A stretch of DNA of 64,000 nt from an uncultured Candidatus Saccharibacteria bacterium (lineage in GTDB: Bacteria > Patescibacteriota > Minisyncoccia > UBA6257 > Colwellbacteraceae): positions 73,049 to 137,048 of the forward strand of contig CAZXPC010000002.1 in assembly GCA_964643135.1 (NCBI GenBank). Reading direction: 5' to 3'. Shown piece after piece: positions 17,279-40,967 of this stretch. Both the position numbers and the translations under genes were made by a program. Below the pieces are notes generated by a model, which had not been told where the DNA came from, did not search any database, and worked only from the letters and a program-made list of their open reading frames with translations. The number at the start of each line of letters is the position of its first letter. Position 1 is the stretch's first letter.

Positions 17279-17281
17279 GCG

Positions 17282-18268: not shown

Positions 18269-18270
18269 AA

Positions 18271-19869: not shown

Positions 19870-19926
19870 CTATATATTGTACGCTTACCACGAAAATTGT
19901 AAATTATTAACTTATGTAAGAGAATT

Positions 19927-20538: not shown

Positions 20539-20661
20539 TGCTCGCAAATTTTTAACGATGGCGTTGTTGCGGAGCCTCTCAAATTCGTCGAAGTAGTATT
20601 TAAAGACTACATCTCCTCATTTGTTTCTCCGCGCCTAGCCCTGGTTCAAAATTTGCGAGCA
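20539..20661 (+). repeat. Structured intergenic element A, copy 1 (18-bp outer inverted repeat TGCTCGCAAATTTTTAAC/GTTCAAAATTTGCGAGCA around a conserved ~71-nt core)
   Basis: Core 20566..20636 GTTGCGGAGCCTCTCAAATTCGTCGAAGTAGTATTTAAAGACTACATCTCCTCATTTGTTTCTCCGCGCCT recurs at 42323..42392 with one indel. Internal hairpins GCGGAG/CTCCGC and GTAGT/ACTAC. Confidence 0.6.
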
Positions 20662-20692
20662 TTGGCTTGCGATAGTATTATGGGATAGACCA

Positions 20693-26072: not shown

Positions 26073-27482
26073 TTATTTTGGGGTTAACATACTCGGATCT
26101 TTTAAAGTGATTGAGGCAGAGAAAGATATGTTGGTCGTTTTTTCGAGGTCGGTTGGGGGGATCGGAGCCACAGTCCACATAGTTGAAGTATCAAGAGATT
26201 TCTTAAAGTTAGCCAGCTGTATCCTGGTTACGGCCGAGCCGGATATGCTGATCGCGCTTTGCGTACCGGCCGCGCTGAAATTGTTAATCGTGATGCCCGG
26301 CGTTATTTTAGTGCGCAGTTCGTCGAAAAAGATGCTCCAGTTGGGCGACCGGTCGATCACTGCTTTAACGGCCGCAACCATGGTATTGAATTTAGCAACT
26401 TTCGGTTCCAAGTCCGACCCATTTTGAGGCAGGGGACTAGTTGAAGACGCGGTATGGATGGACCGAGATTGGAGTGAGAGCATCAGTATCCACACCAGAA
26501 CGAAAGCGATTGCGATCACGGCGCTGATTGCAGCGATGGCGTCAGAAATGAATTTGGCAAAGAGCGTGTCTTTTTGGATTTCATAAGCCACTTCAGTGCC
26601 GACCGAAGTTAAGCTGATCAAGTTGTCTTCCGCCCGCGGCAAGAGCCCGCGCAAGGCGGCGCCCAGCGCGATGAGCCAGCTTTTCGGGTCGCCCGCTAAT
26701 TTCGGGTCGCCGGCAAACTTTTTCGCCATGGGCAACTCAGAGAGGTCGACGAACTTCTTGATGCTCTCATCGCTCACTTCATAAAAATCAGAAATCTTTT
26801 TAATTTCGGCATCAAGATCGGCGTCGGTCATGAGCCGGTTAATCATGCGGGAGAATTTGAGAGACTTGCCCTTCATGACTATGAAGCCGCTGTAACTCTT
26901 GCCTTTGACGATTACTAGAGTGGTTAGCTTGTCATCCAGCGCGATGCCGCGAACGAGGCTCAAGATATGAGTCTCAACGATAAACGGATTGAGGCCCGCC
27001 TTTTCTATGCTCTTTAAAAACGGGTCGACGATATTCTTGGGGATTAGCGCCAAGTAAACTTCGTTATCTTTTTCGGACGGAATCGTTTCCCAGTCGAGGT
27101 AAACGTCTTCGATCTTGACTGGTAGGTTAAAGCCGGCTGTGACCTTCATGGCGTCATTTATTTTCCCGCCGGGCAGAGTTTTAGGGAAAGAGAATATTTT
27201 TGAGTAAGCATTGAGGTCGCTTAAAGAGACGACGACATTTTTAACATGCCACTTAGTTTTGCCGATGAGCGATTTAAGGGCCGTTATAAAAGCCTCTTCG
27301 TTCTTTAAGATGCCGCTTTCGACAACACCGGCCGGGAGAGGCTCTTCGACAGCTTCTTTCACAAAAGTTAATTTAGCCCCACGGGTTTTGCCCAGCAAAA
27401 CTAACCGCAGAAATTCATCGCTAACTTCAAGCCCGCCAATAGGTTCTTTATCTGACAGCGCTTCGACTAGATTCAGTTTCAT
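26073..27482 (-). CDS. pilM: PilM-PilN fusion (actin-like ATPase domain, TM, periplasmic PilN-like domain)
   Basis: N-terminal PilM-like fold (…GGLEVSDEFLRLVLL…), a central TM (AIAAISAVIAIAFVLVWILMLSL) and a ~140-aa C-terminal domain. Confidence 0.55.
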   Translation of the reverse strand: MKLNLVEALSDKEPIGGLEVSDEFLRLVLLGKTRGAKLTFVKEAVEEPLPAGVVESGILKNEEAFITALKSLIGKTKWHVKNVVVSLSDLNAYSKIFSFPKTLPGGKINDAMKVTAGFNLPVKIEDVYLDWETIPSEKDNEVYLALIPKNIVDPFLKSIEKAGLNPFIVETHILSLVRGIALDDKLTTLVIVKGKSYSGFIVMKGKSLKFSRMINRLMTDADLDAEIKKISDFYEVSDESIKKFVDLSELPMAKKFAGDPKLAGDPKSWLIALGAALRGLLPRAEDNLISLTSVGTEVAYEIQKDTLFAKFISDAIAAISAVIAIAFVLVWILMLSLQSRSIHTASSTSPLPQNGSDLEPKVAKFNTMVAAVKAVIDRSPNWSIFFDELRTKITPGITINNFSAAGTQSAISISGSAVTRIQLANFKKSLDTSTMWTVAPIPPTDLEKTTNISFSASITLKDPSMLTPK

Positions 27483-27556
27483 CTTATAGATTATACATTA
27501 AAGAGGCATTTGGTATATAATTTTAAGATATCCACAGGCGCCCGTATTGCCGAGTT

Positions 27557-27584
27557 TTGCATTGGATGGGCGATGTAGTATAAT
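27557..27584 (+). promoter_or_regulatory. Sigma-70-like promoter for the pilin gene (TTGCAT, 16 nt spacer, TATAAT)
   Basis: Near-consensus -35/-10 hexamers 28 nt upstream of the pilin start codon. Confidence 0.45.
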
Positions 27585-27611
27585 AACCAGAGTTAATAAA
27601 TTAGTAATAAA

Positions 27612-28361
27612 ATGAATATAAATAAAGTTGTGGATGGAAAGCGGGTCAAAGGTTTCACATTGTTGGAACTTTTAATCGTTATCACCATCATTGCCATTTT
27701 GTCGGTTGCCCTAATCGTCGTCATCAACCCAGCTGAAACGCTCAAGAAATCTAGAGACACACAGAGAATCTCCGACATGGCTGCTTTGAAGACTGCCATT
27801 GGTATCTACACCACGACCGTATCGAGCCCTCTGATGGACAATGGAAGCAACACCCTTTGCCAGCCGACCACTGCTGGTACTTGGGCTAACAACGACCAAG
27901 TTTGGTACGACCAGACAGGCATGAATGCCACTATCACTTTTGCCGGCGGAACCAACAACACTAATCCGTTGTATGTCGGCAGTACCACGACAACTACAGG
28001 CGGCAGCGGCTGGTTGCCGATTAACTTCAATGCTATTACCGGCGGCTCTCCGATCTCCAACTTGCCGTTAGACCCGAGCAATACCTTTGCACCCGGCTCT
28101 GCCCCGATAGGCAACACAAATTCCTCAGTAGACAGGCCTAATGCAAATGCCCTGGTTTATCGCTATGCTTGTTTCTCTACAACTTTATTGCAGTACGAAA
28201 TTGATGCCACACTAGAAAGTGCCGCCTATGGGAACTCTGCTACCGGCAGCGACAACAAAATGGCCAGTGATGGGGGCAACTCGACGATTCAATACGAAGT
28301 TGGTACAAACCTCAGCATCCTTGGAGCCAATACGACTAACAACGGTACGGCCGGGTTCTAG
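27612..28361 (+). CDS. pilA: Type IV major pilin (prepilin N-terminal cleavage/methylation domain)
   Basis: …KRVKG|FTLLELLIVITIIAILSVALIVV… with Gly at -1 and Glu at +5. C-terminal region is S/T/N/G-rich with at least 9 N-x-S/T sequons. Confidence 0.85.
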   Translation: MNINKVVDGKRVKGFTLLELLIVITIIAILSVALIVVINPAETLKKSRDTQRISDMAALKTAIGIYTTTVSSPLMDNGSNTLCQPTTAGTWANNDQVWYDQTGMNATITFAGGTNNTNPLYVGSTTTTTGGSGWLPINFNAITGGSPISNLPLDPSNTFAPGSAPIGNTNSSVDRPNANALVYRYACFSTTLLQYEIDATLESAAYGNSATGSDNKMASDGGNSTIQYEVGTNLSILGANTTNNGTAGF

Positions 28362-28382
28362 CACCTTTTCTTAGACAGAGAA

Positions 28383-28409
28383 AAACGCCCCGATGAGGGG
28401 CGTTTTTTA
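28383..28409 (+). terminator. Strong rho-independent terminator (AACGCCCC-GATG-AGGGGCGTT plus TTTTTT)
   Basis: 8-bp GC-rich stem, tetraloop and U-run directly after the pilin gene. Confidence 0.8.
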
Positions 28410-28469
28410 ATTGCTCTGGAGTTACTCCACTTTGTCTTGTAATATACGAATTGACCATTACATAAACAC

Positions 28470-30086
28470 ATGACCAGATTGCTGTTGATAATTTACTTGT
28501 CCGCTATTTTTTTTGCCGCTTTGTATCCAGTATTCGATATCGACCTGGGTTATGTCATGAGAACCGGACAATATGTAGTTCAGAATCTTCAGGTGCCCAC
28601 TCATGATATCTTCTCCTTTTCCGCCGCCGGCGCGCCTTGGATAGCTCACTATTGGTTCTCAGGGGTTATTTTTTATATTACTCAACTGTTTTTTGGAATA
28701 AATGGGTTAATTGTTCTAGTGGGGATTATTGCCGCGGCAACGTACTTCTTTGTTATCAAGAAGGTTGCGCTTCATTTTAAAGACAATATTACTTTCTTCT
28801 GGCTTATTTTTGTAATAGGTTCTTTCTATTTTGCCTGGAGCGTCAGGGCTCAAATTTTTACCAACCTATTTTTAGCCATAACTCTATTTTTGCTTGAGAG
28901 ATATGAAGTTGATCATAAGAAAATCAGCCTCTATCTGATTCCTCCGCTAGTCATTTTCTGGGCCAACATGCACGCGGGTGTCGCTGTTATTTTGCCGATC
29001 ATTGTTTTGTGGATTCTGAGTAAGGTGATCGAACACAAATTTAGCCTCCAAAATATAAAGACAGAAATATTGTTGGCGGTTTCGGTATTTGTGGCCACGG
29101 TTGTAAATCCTTGGGGTTACAAGCTTTTGATGTATCAATTTTATGTAGATAAATATAATACACAATTTGTTACGCTCCTGGGCTTTTCCAATTTCGCCAT
29201 TGTTAGAGCGCTGATTTTTCTAATGGTAGCTTTTTCGGCCTTCATTTTGTTCAGACAATTATCAAAGTTGATAAAAGGCAAGGCAGTAAACTTCTTTGAG
29301 ATTGGCCTCACCGTTTTTGCGTTAGCTATGCCCCTTATCTCTGTGAGGCATATGATAATGTTCCCGATTATAGTTTTCCCGATTTTTGTTAAAGAATGGC
29401 ATAACTTTACCAAAGAGGGCCATTTTAAAGTTGAAAACCCCGGCAGATTTAGTGTTTATCTTCTTGTTTTAGGCCTCGGATTTATAGTTTGGCCGCTTAT
29501 CAATATTAAATCTAGATTTAATATTGATGAGAGTCTGCTGCCGAATAAAGGGGTCGATTTTATCAAGACTGCCAATGTCCCTGGCCCGACTTTTAATACT
29601 ATCGAATACGGTGGTTGGCTGATTTGGAAGCTTTGGCCGGACCGAAAGGTATATATCGATGGTCGCAATGACGTCTATTATGGAGGCATGATGGACGAAT
29701 ATCGCTCGATTCTTGCCGAGGCTCCCGGGTGGGAACATGTTGTTAATGATAAATATAAATTCGAATCTTTCATTATGTTTTATCGATCGGACAACCGTCC
29801 TTTTCAGTCCCAGGTAGGAAAATTAAGTGGGGATCTTATAGATAAATTAGATTTCAAATTGGTTTATTGGGACGATGCATCGATTGTTCTGGTTCGCGAT
29901 ACTCCTGAGAATTCTGAAATAATAAAAAAATACGGTTATAACATAATAAGACCATTTAAAAATCCATCAGTATTTTCTAAAGGAGATAGAATAATAGCCT
30001 TGGCCGAAGTTGAGCGCGCTCTGCGGATATCGCCAGACTCAGCGGTCTTACGAGACTTCAAAAGATTAATTTTAGAAAATCAGTAA
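28470..30086 (+). CDS. GT-C-like polytopic membrane glycosyltransferase paralog 1 (about 11-12 TM plus C-terminal soluble domain)
   Basis: Family motifs DLGY…KTGQYVVQNLQVPTHDIFSFSAAGAPWIAHYWFSG, WANMHAGV, GGWLIWKLWPDRKVYIDGRNDVY, KYKF, LVYWDDASIVLVRDT, ISPDS. Confidence 0.55.
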   Translation: MTRLLLIIYLSAIFFAALYPVFDIDLGYVMRTGQYVVQNLQVPTHDIFSFSAAGAPWIAHYWFSGVIFYITQLFFGINGLIVLVGIIAAATYFFVIKKVALHFKDNITFFWLIFVIGSFYFAWSVRAQIFTNLFLAITLFLLERYEVDHKKISLYLIPPLVIFWANMHAGVAVILPIIVLWILSKVIEHKFSLQNIKTEILLAVSVFVATVVNPWGYKLLMYQFYVDKYNTQFVTLLGFSNFAIVRALIFLMVAFSAFILFRQLSKLIKGKAVNFFEIGLTVFALAMPLISVRHMIMFPIIVFPIFVKEWHNFTKEGHFKVENPGRFSVYLLVLGLGFIVWPLINIKSRFNIDESLLPNKGVDFIKTANVPGPTFNTIEYGGWLIWKLWPDRKVYIDGRNDVYYGGMMDEYRSILAEAPGWEHVVNDKYKFESFIMFYRSDNRPFQSQVGKLSGDLIDKLDFKLVYWDDASIVLVRDTPENSEIIKKYGYNIIRPFKNPSVFSKGDRIIALAEVERALRISPDSAVLRDFKRLILENQ

Positions 30087-30088
30087 AG

Positions 30089-31717
30089 ATGTTCAACTCT
30101 TTGATTATAGTTTACTTATTCGCCGTTTTTATTTATGTGTTGGCGCCAATCGATAATGTTGATATTGGTTATATTTTAAAGACCGGTCAATATGTAGTTC
30201 AGAATCTTCAGGTGCCCACTCATGATATCTTCTCCTTTTCCGCCGCCGGCGCGCCTTGGATAGCTCACTATTGGTTCTCAGGGGTTTTGATGTATCTCGT
30301 TGTCCACTTCTTGGGTTTTTATGCCTTGATAGCCACCACGGCTCTGATTGCTGCCTTGACGTATTGGCTGGTTGTGAAGAAGTTCCAGCTTTATTTTAAA
30401 GATCCGTCGTTGGCGCTTCTATTGATTTTTCCAACCAGCATCTTGATATTTGGTTTTTGGAGTCCAAGGGGACAAATTTTTACCAATCTCTTCACCGGTT
30501 TATTTTTGTTTTTAATCGAAAAATGGAGACTGCAGAAAACAAAGATTATTCCTTATGTCATACCGCCTCTTGTCGTGCTCTGGGCCAATTTACATGCCGG
30601 AGTGATACTTGGTCTCGCCATCCTTGGTTTGTGGATGGTTGTAAGTTTTATAGAAGCCAGATTTGATCTAACAAAAATAAAAACCCAAGTTATGGTTTTC
30701 TTTGTCTCATGTCTTGCTTCGCTTGTAAATCCTTGGGGCTATAAGCTTCTGACGATCCAATCGTATGTCTATAAAGATAATGCCGAATTCCAATCGATAT
30801 TCAATGCTCTCGATAATCCCACCTTTTCCCTATTTCTCATAACTATGATTTTATCGCTGGGGTTTATTATTTACAGAAAGGTTCTCTACTGCAGAAGAAA
30901 TAAAACGATAGACCTATGGAATTTCGGCATTATGCTTTCTGCGTTTCTCATGCCCATTTTCGCGATAAGGCATGTGGTCTTGGTTCCGTTATTTATTCTT
31001 CCCCTATTGGCCAAAGATCTGTGGGAATTTTGGATTGAAATACGTCCCCGATTTAACAAACGCAAGCTATATATCGCGACTTTGGCAATTGGTTTGATGT
31101 TAATTATTTTAAGGCTGCCTTTTATATTCGGTATGGAAAGCGTTAATAGCCATAATATGCCGGTCAGTGTGGCCAATTTTATTAGAGAGCAGGGCGTTGC
31201 CGGACCTTTGTTTAACTCAAGTGTTTCCGGAGGGTGGCTTATTTGGCAACTCTGGCCCGGACATAGGGCTTATTTTGATAGCCGGAATGATGTTTATTCC
31301 AGCCAGATCTATGATGAGTATCTTAATATATTAAAGAAGGGAGATGGGTGGCAGGAAATTGTTAATGAGAAATATAAATTTAACGCTTTTCTAATTAATT
31401 ATCGTCTTTCCAAATCCGTTTATGTGCAAAAAACGATAGGATCGCTGATTGATTCGCTAATCGATGATTTACATTTCAAGTTGGTTTATTGGGATGACGT
31501 CGCCGTCATCCTGGTACGAGATACGAAGGATACTCAGGAAGTCATCAATAAGTATGACTATCATCTGATTAGGCCTTTCCAAAACCCAAGCTATTTCATA
31601 TCTCCCAAAGACCGACTTGATGCGATCGCCGAGGTCGATAGAGCTCTTAGCGTGTCACCGGATTCGACGGTGTTGCAAGATCTAAGAAATAGACTTTTGA
31701 AGCTAAACGGGGAATAA
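30089..31717 (+). CDS. GT-C-like membrane glycosyltransferase paralog 2
   Basis: Same motif set as paralog 1. A ~100-nt stretch (30181-30290) is nucleotide-identical to 28561-28670. Confidence 0.55.
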   Translation: MFNSLIIVYLFAVFIYVLAPIDNVDIGYILKTGQYVVQNLQVPTHDIFSFSAAGAPWIAHYWFSGVLMYLVVHFLGFYALIATTALIAALTYWLVVKKFQLYFKDPSLALLLIFPTSILIFGFWSPRGQIFTNLFTGLFLFLIEKWRLQKTKIIPYVIPPLVVLWANLHAGVILGLAILGLWMVVSFIEARFDLTKIKTQVMVFFVSCLASLVNPWGYKLLTIQSYVYKDNAEFQSIFNALDNPTFSLFLITMILSLGFIIYRKVLYCRRNKTIDLWNFGIMLSAFLMPIFAIRHVVLVPLFILPLLAKDLWEFWIEIRPRFNKRKLYIATLAIGLMLIILRLPFIFGMESVNSHNMPVSVANFIREQGVAGPLFNSSVSGGWLIWQLWPGHRAYFDSRNDVYSSQIYDEYLNILKKGDGWQEIVNEKYKFNAFLINYRLSKSVYVQKTIGSLIDSLIDDLHFKLVYWDDVAVILVRDTKDTQEVINKYDYHLIRPFQNPSYFISPKDRLDAIAEVDRALSVSPDSTVLQDLRNRLLKLNGE

Positions 31718-31734
31718 TATACGGATATTTCAAA

Positions 31735-32358
31735 ATGGATAACAAGCACCTGGTCATGCCCGAAGATCATATGGATGAGCTCTATAACTCATCCAACCCT
31801 ATTGTTAAGTTTGTGCACCGCGCCAGATTGAAGGCTATTATGGACGTTATGCCCGAGACTAAAGGATTAAAAGTTCTGGACGCCGGCTGCGGGGAGGGGC
31901 ATTTAATTGAAATGCTCAATACTAAATTTCCGGAGAATAAATATTATGGAGCTGATGTGACCGAGGTGGCGCTTAAGCGCGCGCGCGGAAGGTGTCCGCT
32001 TGCCGATTTTAGACTCGAAGACTTAAGCGACTTGAAGTTTGAAGATAAATATTTCGATGTCGTTATTATTACCGAAGTCTTGGAACACATTTTTGATTAT
32101 AAGAAAGTTATTACAGAGCTGAAGAGAGTTCTTAAGAAGGGCGGTATTTTAATCATCACTTTTCCGAATGAATTTCTCTGGACGGCTGGCAGGTTTGTTC
32201 TTGGGATAAGGCCGCCAAAAGTTCCGGACCATGTTAACTCTTTTAGCCCAGCTCAAATAGAAAACCTTGCTGGGATGAGAGTCGTAGACCGGCGAGGGTT
32301 GCCTCTGCGTTGGCCTTTCTTGATATCCTTAGGCTATTTGATCAAGTTTAAGAAATAA
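31735..32358 (+). CDS. Class I SAM-dependent methyltransferase
   Basis: Motif I VLDAGCGEGHLIEML. Post-I acidic GADV. Motif III LKKGGILIITFP. Confidence 0.75.
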   Translation: MDNKHLVMPEDHMDELYNSSNPIVKFVHRARLKAIMDVMPETKGLKVLDAGCGEGHLIEMLNTKFPENKYYGADVTEVALKRARGRCPLADFRLEDLSDLKFEDKYFDVVIITEVLEHIFDYKKVITELKRVLKKGGILIITFPNEFLWTAGRFVLGIRPPKVPDHVNSFSPAQIENLAGMRVVDRRGLPLRWPFLISLGYLIKFKK

Positions 32359-34011
32359 ATGACTTCGGCCAATAAAAATATCTTCCTCACCGCAATCTTC
32401 CTTTGCGCAGTCTTCTTATTCACCTTTTTCGCGATTAACAACACCGACTTAGGCTTCATCCTTAAGACTGGCCAATATATTTGGGAGCATCATGAGATTC
32501 CTCACAATGATATCTTCTCTTTCTCCGCCCCGGGCGTAGATTGGATCGCCCACTATTGGCTAACTGGCGTGTTATTCTACGGCATCTTCCTGCTAGGAGG
32601 CTACCTGGGCCTTAAGATCAGTGTGGCCTTGGTGGCTGCGCTGACCTTCTTCTTTGTTATCAAAAGGTTTGGCCTCTACAGCAAGGATTATCCTTTGTTC
32701 TTAATTCTCTTCTATCCGCTGACTTTCTTCTCGTTTGAATTTTGGAATGTCCGAGGTGAGAACTTCTCGAATCTCTTTCTGGCTATACTCTTATACCTTA
32801 TTGATCAATGGAGATTCAAGAAATCAAAGTGGGCGCTCTATCTAATTCCTCTCTTATCCATGCTGTGGGCCAATATGCATGGGGGAGTGCTGTTGGGGTT
32901 GGCGATACTCGGTTTCTGGGCGGCCGTTAGCCTATATGAAGCACATTTTGCGTTGTCAAAGATCAAAATACAGGCTTCTGTTTTTGTCGCCGCCTGTTTG
33001 GCGTCCCTTCTCAACCCATTCGGTTACAAGTCGCCACTTCTTCTCTTCTTGCTGAACTCGAAGGGGATTAGTGAATTTGATTCGCTCTTTGCGTTTGTTT
33101 TTGGACATGCGCCAAATCTACTGAGATACATAGCCTTTGGCATTATGGTGTTCGCGGCTGGGTTTCTGATTTGGAGACAATATTCGTTATGGAAAAGAGG
33201 CCGCTCGTTTGGAAAATTATTTGATATTGGTCTTGTATCGGTGGCATTTTTAATGCCCTTGATGTCAATCAGGTACATGGTTTTTTTGCCTCTTATAGCC
33301 TTGCCTTTCGTAATTGGAGAATTAAGCAGTTTTCTCACGGAGAGATTCCCGAATCAAGATCGGGAGAATCTTTTTAAGGCCGCGGTTGGGGTCGGCCTAA
33401 TTTTAATAGTTCTCCGTTTGCCGTTTGTCTTGTCCGAGCCTGATGTTAATACTGCCGCTATTCCTGTCGCTGCAACTGATTTTATTAAGAACGCGAATGT
33501 TCCAGAGCCTCTATTCAATAATTTGGAGAATGGAGGTTGGTTGATCTGGAAACTTTGGCCCGAGAGGAAAGTTTTTATCGACGGCCGTTCGGATATATAT
33601 AAATATGGAGTCTACGATGATTATCTTGATATTCGTTCCATGTCGAACGGCTGGGTAAATTTAGTTAACGAGAAATACAAATTTAATTCTTTTCTTCTTA
33701 GCTACCGCCTTAGCAAGGAGACTGAGATCCCTGTGAGTAATTTGATGAATAAATTGAATGATCTAGGGTTTAGGCTTATTTATTGGGATGATAACTATAT
33801 TATTCTGGTACGCGATACGCCTGAAAATCAGCCAATAATTAAAAAATATGCTTATTATTTCATCAAACCATTCCAAAACTCGGCTTCACTGCCGCCGGAT
33901 AAGCTGCCGTTGGCGCTAGAAGAAGTGCGTCGAGCCCTTAGCATTTCTCCGGATTCTAAGATTCTGCAGAATTTAGAAAAAAGCATTTTGAATATAATTA
34001 ACCTGCAATGA
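32359..34011 (+). CDS. GT-C-like membrane glycosyltransferase paralog 3
   Basis: Same motif set (…TGQYIWEHHEIPHNDIFSFSAPGVDWIAHYW…, WANMHGGV, LIYWDDNYIILVRDT). Confidence 0.55.
   Translation: MTSANKNIFLTAIFLCAVFLFTFFAINNTDLGFILKTGQYIWEHHEIPHNDIFSFSAPGVDWIAHYWLTGVLFYGIFLLGGYLGLKISVALVAALTFFFVIKRFGLYSKDYPLFLILFYPLTFFSFEFWNVRGENFSNLFLAILLYLIDQWRFKKSKWALYLIPLLSMLWANMHGGVLLGLAILGFWAAVSLYEAHFALSKIKIQASVFVAACLASLLNPFGYKSPLLLFLLNSKGISEFDSLFAFVFGHAPNLLRYIAFGIMVFAAGFLIWRQYSLWKRGRSFGKLFDIGLVSVAFLMPLMSIRYMVFLPLIALPFVIGELSSFLTERFPNQDRENLFKAAVGVGLILIVLRLPFVLSEPDVNTAAIPVAATDFIKNANVPEPLFNNLENGGWLIWKLWPERKVFIDGRSDIYKYGVYDDYLDIRSMSNGWVNLVNEKYKFNSFLLSYRLSKETEIPVSNLMNKLNDLGFRLIYWDDNYIILVRDTPENQPIIKKYAYYFIKPFQNSASLPPDKLPLALEEVRRALSISPDSKILQNLEKSILNIINLQ
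32386..33075 (+). repeat. Direct repeat (5' half of GT-C paralog 3), ~625 bp perfect then slightly diverged; partner at 34095-34784
   Basis: Nucleotide identity between the two gene 5' halves. Downstream segments alternate between diverged and near-identical. Confidence 0.85.
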
Positions 34012-34064
34012 TTGTTTTTGGTTACTTACTCTGTGTTACACTTATTTAATTAGAAATTATCCTA

Positions 34065-35720
34065 ATGACGTCTGTAAGCAAAAACGCTCTACTCACCGCA
34101 ATCTTCCTTTGCGCAGTCTTCTTATTCACCTTTTTCGCGATTAACAACACCGACTTAGGCTTCATCCTTAAGACTGGCCAATATATTTGGGAGCATCATG
34201 AGATTCCTCACAATGATATCTTCTCTTTCTCCGCCCCGGGCGTAGATTGGATCGCCCACTATTGGCTAACTGGCGTGTTATTCTACGGCATCTTCCTGCT
34301 AGGAGGCTACCTGGGCCTTAAGATCAGTGTGGCCTTGGTGGCTGCGCTGACCTTCTTCTTTGTTATCAAAAGGTTTGGCCTCTACAGCAAGGATTATCCT
34401 TTGTTCTTAATTCTCTTCTATCCGCTGACTTTCTTCTCGTTTGAATTTTGGAATGTCCGAGGTGAGAACTTCTCGAATCTCTTTCTGGCTATACTCTTAT
34501 ACCTTATTGATCAATGGAGATTCAAGAAATCAAAGTGGGCGCTCTATCTAATTCCTCTCTTATCCATGCTGTGGGCCAATATGCATGGGGGAGTGCTGTT
34601 GGGGTTGGCGATACTCGGTTTCTGGGCGGCCGTTAGCCTATATGAAGCACATTTTGCGTTGTCAAAGATCAAAATACAGGCTTCTGTTTTTGTCGCCGCC
34701 TGTTTGGCGTCCCTTCTGAACCCATTCGGTTACAAGTCGCCCCTGCTTCTATTTCTGCTGAACTCGAAGGGGATTAGTGAATTCCAGTCCATACTTGCTG
34801 ACTTTATATCCGAACCGGACATGATGCGAAATGTCGCTCTCGGCGCTATGGTCTTGACCACTGTTTTCCTGATGTGGAGGCAGTATTCGTCGAGAAAGAA
34901 TGATCGCCGGCCCGGCAGGCTATACGAGACCGGCCTGGTACTTGTGGCATTTATTATGCCCATGGTGTCGGTTCGCTATACAGTTTTTTTCCCGCTCATA
35001 ACTTTGCCTTTGATGATCAAGGAGTTAAGCATTTTCCTCAAGGAAAAATTCCCAGAGCAGGACGCGGGGAGTCTTTGGAAGGCGGCGCTCGGTGTTGGGT
35101 TTATTATGATCGCCGGCCGTTTGCCATTCGTTATATCGCAGCCCGATATTAATACTGAGGCGATCGCGGTTGGCGCGACTGACTTTGTTAAGAACGCGAA
35201 TGTTCCAGAGCCCTTATTTAATGGTCTGGGGAACGGCGGCTGGCTCATTTGGAAACTTTGGCCCGAGAGGAAAGTTTTTATCGACGGGCGTTCCGACATA
35301 TACAAATATGGAGTGTACGATGACTACCTTACTATCGAGTCGCAGTCTGACGGCTGGATAAATTTAGTTAATGAGAAATATAAATTTAATTCCTTCTTGG
35401 TTCCTTATCGTTCGAGCCAGGCGACTGCCATAGCCATGAGCCATTTAATAGATCAGCTGACCAATGACTTGGGGTTTAAACTTATATACTGGGATAACGA
35501 TTATATTATTCTGGCGCGCGATACGCCGGAGAATCAGGAAATTATTAAAAAATATGCCTATTCTGTTATAGGGCCCTTTAAGAACCCAGCTTCTATACCT
35601 AAAGATAAGCGGAAGTTAGCCCTGGAAGAGATTCGGCGCGCCCTCTCTATTTCTCCGGATTCCAAGGTTCTAAAAGATTGGGAAAGCAACATGGCTTTCT
35701 TAGCCAATCTCAGCAAATAA
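34065..35720 (+). CDS. GT-C-like membrane glycosyltransferase paralog 4 (N-terminal ~238 aa identical to paralog 3)
   Basis: Same motifs. Nucleotides ~34095-34784 are a near-perfect direct repeat of ~32386-33075. Confidence 0.55.
   Translation: MTSVSKNALLTAIFLCAVFLFTFFAINNTDLGFILKTGQYIWEHHEIPHNDIFSFSAPGVDWIAHYWLTGVLFYGIFLLGGYLGLKISVALVAALTFFFVIKRFGLYSKDYPLFLILFYPLTFFSFEFWNVRGENFSNLFLAILLYLIDQWRFKKSKWALYLIPLLSMLWANMHGGVLLGLAILGFWAAVSLYEAHFALSKIKIQASVFVAACLASLLNPFGYKSPLLLFLLNSKGISEFQSILADFISEPDMMRNVALGAMVLTTVFLMWRQYSSRKNDRRPGRLYETGLVLVAFIMPMVSVRYTVFFPLITLPLMIKELSIFLKEKFPEQDAGSLWKAALGVGFIMIAGRLPFVISQPDINTEAIAVGATDFVKNANVPEPLFNGLGNGGWLIWKLWPERKVFIDGRSDIYKYGVYDDYLTIESQSDGWINLVNEKYKFNSFLVPYRSSQATAIAMSHLIDQLTNDLGFKLIYWDNDYIILARDTPENQEIIKKYAYSVIGPFKNPASIPKDKRKLALEEIRRALSISPDSKVLKDWESNMAFLANLSK
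34095..34784 (+). repeat. Direct repeat (5' half of GT-C paralog 4); partner at 32386-33075
   Basis: See the partner entry. Confidence 0.85.
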
Positions 35721-35724
35721 GGCC

Positions 35725-36441
35725 TTAAAAGGAGAGACTGTATTTTTTGTTTAAATCGTTGGACTTGATTTTGCCTAACGCTGTCAGCATCGAGAATGGG
35801 TGTAAAAAGAAGTTTACTTTGGAATTATCGCTATTATTAAAAACGACCGGCACGGCCTTTATTTTGTAATTGTTTCTTACTGCAATTAGCAATATTTCTA
35901 CGTCATATGCGAAGCCGGTAATGGTTTGCTTGCTAAATATTTTTAACGCGGCCGTTCGTTTGAATAACTTGAAGCCGCATTGGGTGTCGTTAAAATTAGG
36001 AAGAAGGAGCAATCTTACAATTAAGTTAAATGTTTTGCCGCTCAAGGTGCGGTGCAGGGGATTGGTGTCGGATGAACCTCCATTCCGGTCGCCGATTACG
36101 AGGTCGAATTCAGGAATGCATTTTATAAACTCGGTTAGTGACTCAATCGGCGTTGAGAGGTCGGCGTCGCAGGTCAGAACTAGGTCTTTCGAGGCCTCTA
36201 TGACACCACGTTTCACAGCGTTGCCTTTGCCCGATCTTTGTCCGCTGTTTAATATGGGCCTTATTTTTTGATTCTTGAAGTCAACAATAATTTTTAATGT
36301 TCCCTCCGCGTCGCCATCGATTACAACCAATATTTCGTAATCGAAATTATTCTTTTCCAGATACTCAATGATCGATTCAAGGGTTTTCTTGATGCGTTGC
36401 TCTTCTTTATAGCTGGGTATGACGATAGATAGACCGATCAT
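35725..36441 (-). CDS. GT2-family polyprenyl-phosphate sugar synthase (Dpm1/GtrB/ArnC-like)
   Basis: LSIVIPSYKEEQRI…EILVVIDGDAEGT…DADLSTP… GT-A fold with DxD. Confidence 0.8.
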   Translation of the reverse strand: MIGLSIVIPSYKEEQRIKKTLESIIEYLEKNNFDYEILVVIDGDAEGTLKIIVDFKNQKIRPILNSGQRSGKGNAVKRGVIEASKDLVLTCDADLSTPIESLTEFIKCIPEFDLVIGDRNGGSSDTNPLHRTLSGKTFNLIVRLLLLPNFNDTQCGFKLFKRTAALKIFSKQTITGFAYDVEILLIAVRNNYKIKAVPVVFNNSDNSKVNFFLHPFSMLTALGKIKSNDLNKKYSLSF

Positions 36442-38045
36442 TGGTTGTAAAAGAATAGAGCATCGGGAGATTGTGTTCGGACGCGCTTCAATTCGGCCTG
36501 GTATTCTTGATTTTTTTCTTTAGGAACGTTTTGAGGGCTGACATACGGGCTGACAACATTATAACCGTATTTATCTATCACGGTTTTGTTTTCGGGAGTG
36601 TTTCTGACCAAGACTATTACCGATTCGCCCCAGTAAACCAGTTTAAATTCATTATTTTTTGTCAGCGCATTAAAAAGGTCGGCGACATAATTGGCGTTGG
36701 CGTCGCGGTACGAAAGGAAAAAGCTGTTAAATTTATATTTATCGTCGACAATTTTCTCCCAGTCGGGCGATTGGCGTACGATTGAAAGATATTCTTGGTC
36801 GACTGCTCCGGAATAGACATCGCTTCGGCCGTCGATAAAAATTTTATGATTTGGATAGAGCCTGTGTATCAGATAACCGCCAAAGATTGGGTCATTGAAC
36901 ATATTGTCAGCGAGGTTATTATACTCCACAAAACCTACCGCTTCGGCGGGCAAAAAGAATGAACTTGTGACGGGCGTTCTAAATGCCTGGAAAATACTTA
37001 AAGCGTTTAATAATAGGAAGGCTGTGAGGGTTGTGAGAGATAGGAGGACCCAATTTTTTGAAGATAGCTTGGTTTTGCGTTTTAGGTAGCTGATAAATAT
37101 CGGCAATATCAGGATCGGAAAGAAGCCGACGTATCTAATTGAGATGAGGGGCATGGCGAAGGCGGCTAATGTTAGGAGTGTGTCTGCGATCGGCCAGTTT
37201 CTAAAAGCTCTCTTTTTGCCAAAGATCTTATAGGAGATGAAAGCAGTTAGCGCGATAGATAAACACAAGAAGAATTTAGCTTCCCCAGTCTGCAGAAAAT
37301 CCAGAAGTGATCGGAATTCGAGAACGTTCATTGCTTTCACTGCGGGGGATATAGTCCAACTAAAAATGATTAGTTTATAGCCATTCGGGTTGATTAAGGT
37401 GGCAGCGATCGAGGTGAGGGCCGTAATCAAAAATCTGACATCGTATTTTTTAATTATATTTTCCAGCATGTAGGCGCCCAAGATCGCGATGCCCAGAATG
37501 ACCCCACCGTGGAGGTTGGCCCAGACGAGCATGAGCGGGGGCATTAAATAAAGTAATTTTGAACTGGGGGCCGATTTCCATTTTTCTAAAAGGAATATAA
37601 GTATAGCTGTGCATAAGTAAGAGAAAATTTGTGGTCTGGTAAACCAGGCGTCATAAGTGATGAAGCTGAGTGGTATTATCAGAATCAGAGAGAGCAAATT
37701 GCGGCCGGACTTTAAAAGAGCCGTTTTATAAACAAAAAAGTAGGTTAGAGCGGCAATAAGCGAGGTGCCGAGCGTTAGGCCTAGAAAGCCGAGCCATTTA
37801 TACTCGAAGAATAGAATGATCCCGGAGAGCCAGTAGTGGGCGATCCACTCGTTTTTGGGGTAAGCGAATGAAAATATGTCTTCGTGTGGAACGCTGAAGT
37901 GCTGAAGGACATACTCGCCGGTTTTCATTTCATAACCAACATCTCCAAAAGTTTCGCCGACGGTTCTGATTGTTAGGGAAAATACTGCCGTAAGGAATAA
38001 CAGTAGTAGCAGCCATTGAACGTGCTTAATAGACATTGAGGCCAT
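36438..38045 (-). CDS. GT-C-like membrane glycosyltransferase paralog 5 (minus strand; overlaps the GT2 gene by 4 nt)
   Basis: …KTGEYVLQHFSVPHEDIFSFAYPKNEWIAHYWLSG…, WANLHGGV, GGYLIHRLYPNHKIFIDGRSDVY, LVYWGESVIVLVRNT, QSPDA. Confidence 0.55.
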   Translation of the reverse strand: MASMSIKHVQWLLLLLFLTAVFSLTIRTVGETFGDVGYEMKTGEYVLQHFSVPHEDIFSFAYPKNEWIAHYWLSGIILFFEYKWLGFLGLTLGTSLIAALTYFFVYKTALLKSGRNLLSLILIIPLSFITYDAWFTRPQIFSYLCTAILIFLLEKWKSAPSSKLLYLMPPLMLVWANLHGGVILGIAILGAYMLENIIKKYDVRFLITALTSIAATLINPNGYKLIIFSWTISPAVKAMNVLEFRSLLDFLQTGEAKFFLCLSIALTAFISYKIFGKKRAFRNWPIADTLLTLAAFAMPLISIRYVGFFPILILPIFISYLKRKTKLSSKNWVLLSLTTLTAFLLLNALSIFQAFRTPVTSSFFLPAEAVGFVEYNNLADNMFNDPIFGGYLIHRLYPNHKIFIDGRSDVYSGAVDQEYLSIVRQSPDWEKIVDDKYKFNSFFLSYRDANANYVADLFNALTKNNEFKLVYWGESVIVLVRNTPENKTVIDKYGYNVVSPYVSPQNVPKEKNQEYQAELKRVRTQSPDALFFYNQ

Positions 38046-38116: not shown

Positions 38117-38794
38117 ATGATTAATTTTCTGCTTTATGTGGTCATCTGGCTGCCGATTATATTTTACTGGGCGGTTTTTGTAGCGGCGCTATTGCTATAT
38201 GCTTTTAGGCATCACGAGAAAGCGGCGATTAAGTCGAAATTTTTGAACTACAGGGTGATTATCATCGGGACGATCGTTTTCCGGTTCCTCTATGCGCTCT
38301 TGGAATCGGTTGCGCAATATTACGTTTGGACGACCAGCGATCTGACCAGGAGTTTGCTGAACAGCCCCCTTAGCGACAAGGTGCCGCCGGAGGGTTTTAT
38401 TGTGCAGGCTTTCCCATCGCTCTTTAAGACTGGGGCGGGATACTTCTTGTATTATGCTTACGGCCGGTTTTTTCTAAACGCCATACTCGTCGTTATCTGC
38501 GCTTTTATTTTCTACTTTATTCTAAAAGCTCTACAGAAATACCAGGATCGGTTCTTTGATACGGGCGAGACTGAATTGGGCTTTTTGTGCTGCCTCATCG
38601 TCGGCTGGCCGGCCTTTGTGGTTTTTGTGCCGCTCGCTTTTGTGGCGGTTGTCATTGTCTCTGTTTTCCGCGGTATTTTCTTCAGGGAACTTTATACCAC
38701 GCTGGGCTATCCGTTCCTTTTGGCCGCGCTGATGTGCCTGATACTCGGGGAAAACTTGATTACGATGTTCAATCTCCTGGTCTTGAAAGTGTAG
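38117..38794 (+). CDS. Integral membrane protein (~6 TM), hypothetical
   Basis: Hydrophobic. Weak similarity to the prepilin-peptidase GGGDVKL region that lacks the catalytic Asp, so not called as PilD. Confidence 0.35.
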   Translation: MINFLLYVVIWLPIIFYWAVFVAALLLYAFRHHEKAAIKSKFLNYRVIIIGTIVFRFLYALLESVAQYYVWTTSDLTRSLLNSPLSDKVPPEGFIVQAFPSLFKTGAGYFLYYAYGRFFLNAILVVICAFIFYFILKALQKYQDRFFDTGETELGFLCCLIVGWPAFVVFVPLAFVAVVIVSVFRGIFFRELYTTLGYPFLLAALMCLILGENLITMFNLLVLKV

Positions 38795-38832: not shown

Positions 38833-39195
38833 TTGGAAATCTTTAGATTTAAAAATTGGAAAGTTTATAAGGAATCCAAGGATTTGTTTAAACTTCTACT
38901 CAAGATATCTGATAAATTGCCTAAGGATTATAAATATTCTATTGGTTCGCAGGTTTTAAGGTCGGGGCTGTCGATCATCCTAAACATTGCAGAAGGTAGC
39001 GGCAAAGATTCTGATAAAGAATTAAATCGATATTTCAACATATCCATAGGTTCAATAAATGAGACTTTGGCATTTACTGATACATTGACCGATTTAGGCT
39101 TGATAACGGCAACTGAGTTCCAGAATGTATATAAATTATGTGAGAGCATCTCTCGGCAGTTGGGTGGTTTTAAGAGAAGGCTTAAAGAAGAATAG
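38833..39195 (+). CDS. Four-helix-bundle protein (TIGR02436, 23S rRNA intervening-sequence protein family); TTG start
   Basis: …LSIILNIAEGSGKDSDKELNRYFNISIGSINETLAF… The family signature NIAEG…S.E is present. Confidence 0.7.
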   Translation: MEIFRFKNWKVYKESKDLFKLLLKISDKLPKDYKYSIGSQVLRSGLSIILNIAEGSGKDSDKELNRYFNISIGSINETLAFTDTLTDLGLITATEFQNVYKLCESISRQLGGFKRRLKEE

Positions 39196-39254: not shown

Positions 39255-40967
39255 ATGCACTTAACTCCCGATAAACTTAAAATTTTACTGCGAGAATCCG
39301 GCGTGGTTGACGAGGATGCTTTTGATACGGCGGTTAAAGAAGCTGAGCAGACCGGCCGCTCGGTGGAAGAAATTTTAATTGCCCGCGGCGATGTGCCGGA
39401 ACACTACCTAACCGAGCTCTTAGCTAAATATTTTAATGTTCCGGTTGTGAATCTCGACTCGGTTGTGATTCCCAAAGAAGTAATCGAGCTTATTCCCGAG
39501 AGCTACGCTCAGCTTAAGAAGCTAGCCATCTTCGATTACAAAAAGGGGGAGTACGCCAAGGTCGCCATGCTGGACCCGCTCGACTACGACGCGATCGAAT
39601 ATTTGAAAACTAAGCTGGGTGTGGCGATCCAGCCCTCTCTTACGACCGGTTCCAGCCTGAGCAATGCTTTGAAGCAGTACAAGGAGCAAATCGGGAATGA
39701 ATTTAGCAAGATCATCCGCGAGAACGTGGAAAAATCGGTTACTCAAACCGGAGAAACCGACCTGGCCAAAATGGCGGCCGCCGTGCCGGTGGTGGCCATT
39801 CTAAAAAGTATTATCGAATACGCTATTTCTTTAAATGCGTCGGACATTCACTTTGAGCCGTTTTTCCAGAATTTGGTTATCAGGTACCGCGTCGACGGCG
39901 TTTTGCGCGAGGCTTTCGATTTGCCCAAACAAGTCGAGCCGACCATTGTGGCGCGCGTTAAAATTTTGGCCAACTTGCAGATCGACGAGCACCGCCTGCC
40001 GCAGGACGGCCGATTCAAATTTAATGTGACGGAAAAAGAAACGATTGATGTGCGTGTCAACATTATCCCGGTGCTTTACGGCGAAAAGGCGGAAATGAGG
40101 CTGTTGCGGAGCAGTTCGCGGCCGATTATGCTGGAAGACATCGGCTTCTCTAAAGAGGCGGTTGAAAAGGTGAACGACGAGATTCGGAAACCGCACGGTA
40201 TGATTTTGGTTACCGGTCCGACCGGTTCCGGTAAAACGACGACTCTTTACGCGATTTTGAGTATTTTGAATACGCCCAAGGTTAACATTACGACCATTGA
40301 AGACCCGATCGAGTACGAAGTTTCGGGCATCAACCAGATTCAGGTCAACACGAAAGCGGGCGTAACTTTTGCGTCGGGGCTGCGCGCTATTTTGAGGCAG
40401 GACCCGAACGTGATCATGATTGGTGAAATTCGCGACAACGAAACGGTTGAGATCGGCATTCAGGCGGCCTTGACCGGACACTTGGTTTTGTCGAGCTTGC
40501 ACACCAACGACGCGCCGTCGGCTCTGCCGAGGCTCTTGGACATGGGGGCGCCGGCGTTTTTGCTTGCTTCAACCGTTAACCTCTCAATCGCGCAGAGGCT
40601 GGTTCGTAAAATTTGCACTTCCTGCATCGAATCATACGTGCCTTCGGAAGAGTCCCGGCGGCTCGCTTTGGCGCAGTTTGAATTGGCCGGGCACAAGATT
40701 GACAAAGAGGCTATTCCTAAAAATCTATACCGCGGCAAGGGCTGTAATGTCTGCACCAATACCGGCTACCGCGGCCAGATCGCTATTTTTGAACTTATGA
40801 AAATGAGCGATGCGATCAGGGCTATGGTTTTGAAGATGGCCCCGTCGGGAGAGATCAGAGAACAGGCGATCAAAGAAGGTATGACGACGATTTTTGAGGA
40901 CGGCCTCGATAAAGCGAAAAAGGGGATCACCACGCTCGATGAGGTCCTGCGCGTGATACAAGAATAA
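39255..40967 (+). CDS. pilB: Type IV pilus assembly ATPase PilB (GspE family)
   Basis: N-terminal GSPII_E_N-like domain. Walker A GPTGSGKTTTLYA. Asp box, His box. Tetracysteine CTSC…CNVC. Confidence 0.9.
   Translation: MHLTPDKLKILLRESGVVDEDAFDTAVKEAEQTGRSVEEILIARGDVPEHYLTELLAKYFNVPVVNLDSVVIPKEVIELIPESYAQLKKLAIFDYKKGEYAKVAMLDPLDYDAIEYLKTKLGVAIQPSLTTGSSLSNALKQYKEQIGNEFSKIIRENVEKSVTQTGETDLAKMAAAVPVVAILKSIIEYAISLNASDIHFEPFFQNLVIRYRVDGVLREAFDLPKQVEPTIVARVKILANLQIDEHRLPQDGRFKFNVTEKETIDVRVNIIPVLYGEKAEMRLLRSSSRPIMLEDIGFSKEAVEKVNDEIRKPHGMILVTGPTGSGKTTTLYAILSILNTPKVNITTIEDPIEYEVSGINQIQVNTKAGVTFASGLRAILRQDPNVIMIGEIRDNETVEIGIQAALTGHLVLSSLHTNDAPSALPRLLDMGAPAFLLASTVNLSIAQRLVRKICTSCIESYVPSEESRRLALAQFELAGHKIDKEAIPKNLYRGKGCNVCTNTGYRGQIAIFELMKMSDAIRAMVLKMAPSGEIREQAIKEGMTTIFEDGLDKAKKGITTLDEVLRVIQE

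Follow-up and report, generated by a model that had tools for sequence, protein, structure and literature searches.

What do five related membrane proteins do between a type IV pilin gene and the genes of the pilus machinery? The question was raised by a window of 64,000 nucleotides from an uncultured Candidatus Saccharibacteria bacterium (contig CAZXPC010000002.1), the whole stretch of DNA analysed here, for which a first-pass annotation had proposed a system glycosylating pilins or surface proteins. The observations behind this proposal are partly confirmed, and the proposal as a whole is supported, all checks suggested with it having gone in its favour. With a probability of about 0.55, we read the region as an extracytoplasmic glycosylation module built into the type IV pilus gene cluster, with the pilins as its acceptors. 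Type IV pili serve CPR/Patescibacteria in host attachment and movement and are common phage receptors, and in the few systems studied pilin glycans alter adhesion, antigenicity and phage sensitivity. The literature searched contained no description of a route for glycosylating pilins in CPR bacteria or in Flp/Tad pili.

Five GT-C paralogs inside a pilus gene cluster

The array sits between the pilin gene and the genes for the PilB ATPase (39255-40967) and the PilC platform (41068-42294, both on the plus strand), with a PilM-like pilus assembly gene (26073-27482, minus strand) on the far side of the pilin; a search of the window turned up no gene for a prepilin peptidase. Four of the paralogs are encoded on the plus strand, namely A (28470-30086, 538 aa), whose start lies 108 nt beyond the pilin stop codon, B (30089-31717, 542 aa), C (32359-34011, 550 aa) and D (34065-35720, 551 aa), and one, E (36438-38045, 535 aa), on the minus strand. 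All five proteins of about 540 aa announced by the first-pass annotation were thereby located, every motif that it quoted for them is present, and the window holds no other gene of the family.

Pairwise identities among the paralogs range from 34 to 44%, except for the pair formed by C and D, which reaches 79.5%. Residues 1-212 of these two proteins, comprising TM1 to TM7, are identical, whereas from external loop 4 onward identity falls to 50-82%. This pair reflects recent gene conversion or duplication. The phase-variable-like diversification suggested earlier finds no support, and no homopolymer or simple-sequence tracts able to sustain phase variation were found. The single GT-C protein encoded in the pilus cluster of the nearest relative is closer to E (40% identity) than to the other copies (35-36%). 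Moreover, the G+C content of the array (42%) is lower than that of its flanks (49-51%), so the array could be a recent insertion.

A probable donor synthase, a methyltransferase and a possible flippase

The array also encodes a GT2 protein of 238 aa without a membrane anchor (35725-36441, minus strand), whose gene overlaps the end of paralog E by 4 nt. It matches Glycos_transf_2 (E 2e-23), its best PDB relatives are GtrB, DPMS and ArnC, and its best NCBIfam matches, all below their cut-offs, are PgfS, Dol-P-hexose transferase, AglJ, ArnC and PpgS, in keeping with the Dpm1/GtrB/ArnC type of polyprenyl-phosphate sugar synthase to which it had been assigned. GT2 genes lie near the family GT-C not only in the window but also in at least ten other loci (L011, L016, L036, L046, L049, L057, L058, L060, L061 and L066), and in L046 the enzyme is fused to a GtrA/DPMS transmembrane domain. 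On these indirect grounds, a polyprenyl-phosphate-linked sugar is the likely donor of the GT-C family.

Between paralogs B and C we find the anticipated class I SAM-dependent methyltransferase (31735-32358, plus strand, 207 aa; Methyltransf_11/31, E ~1e-22), in which neither a signal peptide nor a transmembrane segment was detected. It turned out to be a recurrent partner of the family, since a methyltransferase of the same kind accompanies the GT-C in L016, L036, L049, L057, L058, L060, L061, L065 and L066. GtrA, a flippase family, completes the cassette of relatives; none is encoded in the window. A possible flippase here is a multi-TM protein of 225 aa with no assigned function (38117-38794, plus strand), divergent from E. 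It shows no profile similarity to GtrA, and a gene for a weakly similar 246-aa protein separates pilin and GT-C in the nearest relatives (L006, L009); whether the 225-aa protein is part of the glycosylation system is uncertain.

Gene neighbourhoods of the family

The co-occurrence with pilins that had been expected for these genes extends to related and unrelated genomes. In the nearest relatives, L006 and L009, the order is pilin, membrane protein, one GT-C, PilB and PilC. In the Tad loci L028, L031 and L032 the GT-C stop codon lies 0-13 nt from the start of a Flp pilin, in the Tad locus L038 the GT-C follows a TadE-like gene by 3 nt, and L046 carries an independent array of five paralogs plus a GT2, divergent from flp and a prepilin peptidase gene. 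On a Phyllobacterium zundukense plasmid, the annotation reads Flp, Flp, GT2, methyltransferase, GtrA and family GT-C. Altogether, at least seven contexts (Flp/Tad loci, the Phyllobacterium plasmid and the nearest CPR relatives) place a family GT-C next to a pilin gene or one gene away, as close as in the window or closer in L006/L009, L028, L031, L032, L046 and L057, and members linked to Tad genes are spread over five or more clades of the tree. Type IV filament genes lie within 10 kb in 15 of about 62 distinct contexts, in a sample of loci drawn by motif search and not phylogenetically independent throughout.

These neighbourhoods also feed the strongest alternative, which we consider possible though doubtful: the same enzymology would serve another envelope component (a wall polysaccharide, a lipoglycan, an S-layer or secreted proteins in general), and the position in the pilus cluster would be an accidental insertion. 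Most CPR homologs are single-copy genes in housekeeping surroundings that lack a nearby pilin or GT2; three of the four Rhizobiales plasmids with the cassette lack Flp genes; Azospira and Sulfuricystis carry it by conjugation genes; and a Sphingomonas homolog sits in a cox operon. The family therefore surely has acceptors besides pilins. The assembly of GT2, methyltransferase, GtrA and GT-C moves among contexts, including Rhizobiales and conjugative plasmids, much as Gtr-type seroconversion cassettes do, and in the window the array is a G+C-poor island with a glycan-synthesis cluster (Bac_transf, GT4, DUF4012 and UbiA-family genes) 6-11 kb upstream that could supply an acceptor polymer. An accidental insertion is, however, at odds with the presence of one family GT-C at the same place of the pilus cluster in the nearest relatives, and with the finding that in several clades the GT-C gene directly adjoins a Flp or TadE-like gene in the same orientation. 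The enzymes closest in fold (AglB/STT3, DPY19 and PMT) all use polypeptide acceptors, which also counts against this alternative.

Fold and candidate active site

The assignment of the paralogs to GT-C enzymology is well supported. An AF2 model of a paralog (pLDDT 93.1, pTM 0.91) predicts 11 TM helices, within the 11-12 first proposed, followed by an alpha/beta C-terminal domain of ~190 aa, larger than the ~150 aa first estimated, which in paralog A is luminal-dome-like. The model displays the multi-spanning GT-C fold with its conserved N-terminal TM module and a variable module, and structure comparison retrieved GT-C enzymes only, with the three groups just mentioned as the closest, so the superfamily architecture originally recognized stands. 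Searches of Pfam and NCBIfam gave no match at E <= 1 for any of the five paralogs, to non-glycosyltransferase families or otherwise; no PDB sequence match was obtained even with a 49-sequence profile; and the distant family members matched nothing in Pfam at E <= 1 except TPRs.

From the positive-inside character of the loops, the N-terminus is predicted inside and the C-terminus outside. Among 28 members from distant lineages, D25, W62, W164-x-N166-x-H168, P214, R293 and D397/R399 are invariant, while D46 (27/28), R126 (27/28), E232 (25/28, replaced by Q in paralog A) and G398 (21/28) are kept in most, and all of these residues map to the predicted outer face. The external loops are the best-conserved parts, with 59% for EL1 compared to 10-40% for the cytoplasmic loops. 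A conserved acidic residue had been sought in this first extracytoplasmic loop, between TM1 and TM2, and two are found there: D46, the candidate put forward at first, and D25, directly after TM1, which is no weaker a candidate for catalysis.

Non-catalytic subunits with a GT-C fold do exist, such as PIG-U/GAB1, and after their model the paralogs could be accessories of pilus assembly or anchoring, or flippases or polymerases of lipid-linked sugars, that transfer no sugar. We regard this as unlikely, as charged and aromatic residues of the outer loops are invariant across distant lineages and members repeatedly occur together with a polyprenyl-phosphate sugar synthase and GtrA.

The pilin and other possible acceptors

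The proposed acceptor, a major type IV pilin candidate of 249 aa (27612-28361, plus strand), was correctly recognized as such: it matches Pfam N_methyl (E 6e-8) and TIGR02532 (E 1e-6) and shows both the class III signal peptide (KGFTLLELL, with its G/F-T-L-x-E motif) and the hydrophobic N-terminal helix. Ser and Thr make up 22% of its residues and form runs, TTT and STTTTTGGSG among them. A Terrybacteria MAG has a pilin of 43% identity whose gene likewise lies ahead of a family GT-C. Possible further acceptors are a 2871-aa protein (42423-51038, plus strand; Ser and Thr 30%), whose class III signal peptide bears out its description as pilin-like, and a minor pilin candidate with an N_methyl motif (53331-54035, plus strand).

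The pilin gene had been placed between a near-consensus promoter and a strong terminator, and both signals are present. The terminator (28383-28408, plus strand) is perfect, with an 11-bp GC-rich stem, a 5-nt loop and a T6 tract (AAAAACGCCCC-GATGA-GGGGCGTTTTTT), and the intergenic stretch after the pilin folds at -30.2 kcal/mol (z -3.7). The pilin is thus transcriptionally separated from the GT-C array, a point that we count against the pilin as acceptor. Upstream, a sigma-70-like site (TTTGCA-17-TATAAT, 27556-27584, plus strand) has 10 of 12 consensus matches, but it is to be taken as a consensus match only, because the region holds 27 such sites against 25.8 expected from shuffles.

The sequon argument did not survive counting. 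Instead of the nine or more claimed, the pilin has eight N-x(not P)-S/T sequons, a number within what its N/S/T-rich composition predicts (5.4 +/- 2.0 in composition shuffles, P = 0.16), and the 2871-aa protein, thought to be sequon-dense, has fewer than expected (63 against 76.7). With this argument gone and the STT3 signature WWDYG absent, O-linkage is more likely than N-linkage. That the paralogs are bacterial N-oligosaccharyltransferases of the PglB/AglB kind acting on the pilin sequons is highly improbable, since the likeness to AglB and STT3 as closest structures, C-terminal domain included, and the eight sequons themselves are countered by GG[WY]LIW...DGR in place of WWDYG, by the lack of a Pfam STT3 match, by sequon numbers not above composition in the pilin and below it in the giant protein, by a partner GT2 of the type that makes monophosphate-linked single sugars and not a diphosphate-linked oligosaccharide, and by the occurrence of the luminal-dome fold in DPY19 and Emb/Aft enzymes as well (PMC10154233).

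Proposed mechanism and wider meaning

The best reading of the module is a lipid-phosphate-sugar-dependent O-glycosylation of pilins. Its fold, conserved external residues, gene partnerships and link to the pilus are observed, whereas we infer the sugar, the methylation step, the flippase, the O-linkage and, from genomic context, the pilin as acceptor. First, judging by homology, the soluble GT2 would use a nucleotide sugar to charge polyprenyl phosphate on the inner membrane face. The cytoplasmic methyltransferase would then probably methylate the lipid-linked sugar at this same face, before flipping, as its repeated association with the GT2 and the lack of an export signal suggest. The lipid-linked sugar would be flipped by some protein other than the GtrA of relatives, which the window lacks. 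Finally, the five GT-C paralogs, with their active sites at the outer face, would transfer the sugar to Ser/Thr of the major pilin, and possibly of other proteins with class III signals, while these are still membrane-anchored before assembly. The five copies may extend the glycan stepwise or differ in their acceptors; in C and D, the donor/catalytic half would be identical and the acceptor-side half not.

The spread of the family is wide, with thousands of clusters in CPR, Acidobacteria-like bacteria, Proteobacteria, Chloroflexota and Firmicutes, and no sequence relative in Pfam, NCBIfam or the PDB. Since unrelated bacteria have the same GT-C family beside their pilin genes, it probably represents a widespread and unstudied route for pilus glycosylation. 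A broader proposal, offered tentatively, is that this very large undescribed family forms with the Dpm1-like GT2, the SAM methyltransferase and GtrA a four-part cassette whose recurrent role is to O-link a (methylated) sugar from a polyprenyl-phosphate donor to subunits of type IV filaments, a general route distinct from ligase-type enzymes such as PglL, TfpO and TfpM. If so, the acceptors would include, in CPR bacteria, T4a-like pilins and, in other lineages, those of the Flp/Tad type, and the tandem arrays, which arose independently in the window and L046, would build or diversify the glycan. Tens of thousands of 'hypothetical proteins' would gain a testable function, and the three-component paradigm of glycosylation a version containing a methyltransferase. 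The uncultured source organism does not permit experiments, for which Phyllobacterium zundukense, Pararhizobium, Azospira, Granulicella and Alicyclobacillus offer cultured entry points. Moreover, an OST-like architecture without WWDYG bears on how GT-C enzymes recognize peptide acceptors.

Comparison with known systems

To our knowledge, CPR bacteria have no lipid A, the acceptor of the ArnC/ArnT pair, and the paralogs resemble ArnT less in structure than OST, DPY19 and PMT. They share with the GT66 enzymes AglB, STT3 and PglB an OST-type alpha/beta extracytoplasmic C-terminal domain, but have 11 TM helices instead of 13, no HMM similarity and neither the WWDYG motif, as had been noticed at the outset, nor DK/MI motifs; the WWDYG counterpart is GG[WY]LIWxLWP...(I/V)DGR. 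The likely donor also differs, being a monophosphate-linked monosaccharide, and sequons are not enriched. From the DPY19 C-mannosyltransferase and the PMT/TMTC/TMEM260 O-mannosyltransferases they are set apart by the absence of MIR domains and by another motif set, and neither the paralogs nor the distant members match Pfam Dpy19, PMT or PMT_2 (GT98, GT39, GT83/ArnT).

The three-component systems (GtrA/GtrB/Gtr*, CsbB/GtcA/YfhO and the GT136 pentofuranose systems) combine a GT2, a small flippase and a GT-C in a mobile cassette (PMC11127046). Exactly this set of GT2, GtrA and GT-C is found among relatives of the window genes, whereas the window itself encodes the GT2 and the GT-C alongside, without GtrA. 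These systems are known to modify O-antigens, teichoic acids and further glycopolymers rather than pilins. Furthermore, the family described here adds a conserved SAM methyltransferase and several GT-C paralogs per cassette, and its GT-C falls in no described family.

The precedent invoked from the beginning was TfpW, the pilin D-arabinofuranosyltransferase of Pseudomonas aeruginosa group IV, a GT-C enzyme whose gene directly follows the pilin gene; its targets are Ser/Thr of the pilin, and it may be responsible for attachment as well as extension of the glycan (preprint 10.1101/2020.04.19.049825). Compared by description, its donor pathway runs through DPPRS and an epimerase instead of a Dpm1-like GT2 with a methyltransferase, its periplasmic loop 1 carries a DDX motif where the paralogs, which lack a DD pair, have D25-x-G and (H/N/E)-D46-I-F-S-F, and its C-terminal domain consists of TPRs, in contrast to the alpha/beta luminal-dome domain of the window paralogs, in which no TPRs were found. 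The gene order holds for paralog A, the paralogs are likewise predicted to have 11 TM helices with the N-terminus in and a large C-terminal domain out, and many other members of the GT-C family do carry C-terminal TPRs like those of TfpW.

Architecture of the array

The glycosyltransferase array follows a gene for a 249-aa pilin (27612-28361) with the class III signal KGFTLLELL and a Pfam N_methyl match (E 6e-8), which is enclosed by a promoter-like site (27556-27584) and a textbook intrinsic terminator (28383-28408; intergenic fold of -30.2 kcal/mol, z -3.7). On the plus strand come paralogs A (28470-30086) and B (30089-31717), a class I SAM methyltransferase (31735-32358), and paralogs C (32359-34011) and D (34065-35720), with gaps of 0-53 nt. 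Convergent with them, on the minus strand, lie a GT2 of the polyprenyl-phosphate sugar synthase type (35725-36441) and paralog E (36438-38045), which overlap by 4 nt. A family profile search recovered exactly these five members in the window, with pairwise identities of 34-44% except for C and D (79.5%). The array is flanked by a type IV pilus cluster with a PilM-like gene, PilB, PilC, a 2871-aa class III-signal protein and a minor pilin. Our ORF map agrees with the first-pass annotation, whose description of this arrangement was real in all but its claim of sequon enrichment, and whose interpretation as a glycosylation system is supported by the analysis below.

The array (28470-38045) has a G+C content of 42.2% (39-40% in A and B) versus 49-51% in the pilus genes on either side, and may have been acquired or be evolving differently. 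In a related locus, L009, the single GT-C gene has the G+C content of its genome. A gene for a '23S rRNA intervening sequence' four-helix-bundle protein (38833-39195, 34% G+C) lies inside the pilus cluster upstream of pilB, and a weak homolog (31% over 67 aa) occurs downstream of pilB in L009 (13575-13946). The 2871-aa protein (42423-51038) and the 749-aa S/T-rich protein without family match that comes next (51078-53327) are unusually large for pilin-like or pilus-associated proteins. No Peptidase_A24 (prepilin peptidase) homolog was found in the window (1-64000), the pilus cluster being otherwise complete.

An apparently new family of GT-C-like enzymes

None of the five paralogs matched any Pfam or NCBIfam model at E <= 1, distant members of the family matched only TPR models in the same libraries, and PDB sequences, queried both with a single protein and with a profile of 49 sequences, yielded chance matches only. 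Relatives are nevertheless abundant: among 1.84 billion cluster representatives, a profile picked up 27,407 at E <= 1e-3, of which 4,905 also pass E <= 1e-30, the named ones being annotated as 'hypothetical' or, where TPRs are fused C-terminally, as 'tetratricopeptide repeat protein'. A scan of GTDB genomes with the five paralogs as query gave three loci, and viral contigs yielded one distant member, without partner genes.

Paralog A gave an AlphaFold2 model of high confidence (pLDDT 93.1, pTM 0.91), and the charge distribution predicts 11 TM helices with the N-terminus inside and the C-terminus outside. Among 28 members from very different lineages, D25, D46, W62, R126, W164-x-N166-x-H168, P214, E232, R293 and D397-G-R399 are invariant or nearly so, and in the predicted topology all these signature residues fall on the outer face; the outer loops also show the best conservation within the window paralogs. 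All five retain the signature, apart from Q in place of E232 in A and G in place of D468 in E. The STT3 motif WWDYG is absent from the paralogs. We conclude that they belong to a so far undescribed GT-C family whose build resembles that of OST and DPY19, a statement that concerns fold and architecture, not GT66 membership. Ogt, the cyanobacterial pilin glycosyltransferase, is a cytoplasmic GT41 unrelated to this family.

Partner genes and the proposed donor pathway

The closest relatives of the GT2 are polyprenyl-phosphate sugar synthases, in the PDB GtrB, DPMS and ArnC, and in NCBIfam PgfS, Dol-P-hexose transferase, AglJ, ArnC and PpgS. The same partnership recurs widely: it is seen on RefSeq-annotated plasmids from two species of Phyllobacterium and from Pararhizobium, Azospira and Sulfuricystis, with a GT2, a class I SAM methyltransferase, GtrA and one or two copies of the family GT-C in overlapping reading frames, and on a Rhizobium plasmid whose annotation, though incomplete, includes the methyltransferase, GtrA and the GT-C. 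In three metagenomic loci (L016, L036, L049) methyltransferase and GT2 genes adjoin the family gene, and in another (L046) the GT2 is fused to a GtrA/DPMS TM domain. The cassette follows the scheme that Mann and Whitfield call 'three-component' (PMC11127046), with the methyltransferase as an extra. Altogether, we put at about 0.85 the probability that the paralogs are active transferases of the GT-C type, supplied by the GT2.

The window methyltransferase has no export signal and must therefore act on the cytoplasmic side, which points to methylation of a nucleotide- or lipid-linked sugar. The archaeal AglP offers a precedent, as it adds a methyl group to a glycan bound to dolichol phosphate.

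GtrA was not found in the window. In three pilus clusters a multi-TM protein of 225-246 aa without family match lies beside the GT-C gene (window 38117-38794(+); L006 8446-9186; L009 9165-9905); the similarity among these proteins is weak (E 0.003), with a GWP motif in common. The 225-aa protein of the window was rejected both as GtrA and as prepilin peptidase (hhalign probability 0.1-0.2%), and one candidate role for the group is that of the missing flippase, another that of a pilus-specific factor.

A second group of glycan-related genes (16391-22801) occurs 5-11 kb upstream, with an unknown ORF of 295 aa, a UbiA-family prenyltransferase (17282-18268), a HIT-like protein, a GT4 (18745-19869, minus strand), a polyprenyl glycosylphosphotransferase (19927-20538) and a DUF4012 protein (20693-22801). 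Identity of the UbiA-family gene as a decaprenyl-phosphate phosphoribosyltransferase would have paralleled the donor pathway of TfpW, the GT-C enzyme for pilin in P. aeruginosa, but the match is weak (E 4.6e-5, far below the cut-off) and leaves it unsupported.

Association with pilus genes

The nearest relatives comprise two loci, L006 (a Terrybacteria MAG) and L009, whose pilin and PilB are 43% and 54.5% identical to those of the window, and where the gene order is pilin, membrane protein, a single family GT-C, PilB and PilC. Paralog E is the window copy closest to this single GT-C (40% versus 35-36%). A-D form a clade of their own with P0005, a homolog on another, short contig. The window therefore represents an expansion of a gene already present in the pilus cluster, together with a GT2 and a methyltransferase.

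Family genes were also found in Tad/Flp loci of unrelated lineages; in a neighbour-joining tree, the Tad-linked members are spread over no fewer than five clades. In three of these loci (L028, L031, L032) the family gene ends 0-13 nt upstream of a Flp pilin gene, followed by rcpC and a secretin gene; in others it starts 3 nt downstream of a TadE-like gene (L038), precedes a prepilin peptidase gene (L030) or lies within a few kb of CpaE/CpaF/TadG (L013, L017, L018, L026, L029). The Flp pilins adjoining family genes have Ser/Thr-rich C-terminal tails. The cassette of Phyllobacterium zundukense starts 229 nt downstream of an annotated Flp pilin gene, and an Alicyclobacillus plasmid carries a family copy close to a T2SS-F gene. 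A second five-paralog array, on a high-G+C metagenomic contig (L046 8350-19865), includes a GT2 and an Acyl_transf_3 gene and is divergent from flp, after which come the prepilin peptidase, RcpC, secretin, TadG and CpaE genes of a full Tad cluster; its copies form a separate clade, so this expansion was independent of that in the window.

By our count, type IV filament genes occur within 10 kb in 15 of about 62 distinct contexts, and in 7-8 of them a pilin or pseudopilin gene is adjacent or one gene away. As a rough estimate, the probability of lying beside a pilin gene by chance would be less than 1% per genome.

Contexts outside pilus clusters

In eight other CPR contexts a single copy lies beside housekeeping genes, and two further unselected contexts (P0038, P0036) showed nothing pilus-related. 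No Flp gene is annotated close to three of the four Rhizobiales cassettes, and those of Azospira and Sulfuricystis adjoin conjugation genes. Such contexts mean that the family acts on several acceptors, and pilins are assigned as acceptors only for the members embedded in pilus clusters, those of this window among them; here we lean, with modest confidence, towards pilins as the acceptors.

Several other CPR genomes have a conserved position for the single-copy homolog, between a PfkB-family kinase gene and a gene for a 422-aa protein without family match (L001 9004-12961; L007 6970-10989). On two conjugative or mobilizable plasmids, Azospira pAZI09 (L058 5107-10440) and Sulfuricystis pSTJ1 (L061 2096-7434), the order GT2, methyltransferase, GtrA, small ORF, GT-C, GT-C is found with a PRTRC-system gene on one side and the genes traG/traH/traF for conjugal transfer on the other. 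In Sphingomonas sp. (L050 6735-14081) a member with the full residue signature sits in the cytochrome c oxidase (cox) operon, flanked by the genes for COX1 and for heme O synthase (CtaB).

Linkage type and paralog number

An N-linked reading was tested on the N-x-S/T sequons, which had been claimed to be abundant in both the pilin and the 2871-aa protein. The pilin has 8, against 5.4 +/- 2.0 in composition-preserving shuffles (P = 0.16), and the 2871-aa protein falls below expectation (63 versus 76.7). These numbers simply reflect the Asn/Ser/Thr richness of both proteins (S+T of 22% and 30%, respectively); the enrichment claim fails, and the N-linked reading found no support in it. Homopolymer or simple-sequence tracts that might drive the phase-variable-like diversification once proposed for the surface glycan are absent.

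Five copies could serve stepwise extension of the glycan, or divide the labour among several class-III-signal proteins. C and D are essentially identical over their first ~690 nt (32359-33050 and 34065-34756, respectively), corresponding to residues 1-212 and TM1-TM7, and 50-82% identical beyond, which shows recent gene conversion or duplication. The break falls in external loop 4 and coincides with the border between the conserved (donor/catalytic) and the variable (acceptor-side) modules of the GT-C literature. Such a pattern would be expected if both enzymes used the same donor with a different acceptor or linkage, and it suggests a recent gene conversion that preserved the donor side while letting the acceptor side vary.

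Comparison with known systems

In the literature searched there was no account of the family, of glycosyltransferases acting on Flp or CPR pilins, or of a GT2-methyltransferase-GtrA-GT-C cassette. The kind of system is already known, both as a GT-C enzyme encoded beside a pilin gene (TfpW) and as three-component glycosylation. Against that literature the enzyme family appears to be new, as do the cassette with its methyltransferase, the link to Flp/Tad and CPR pili, and the paralog arrays.
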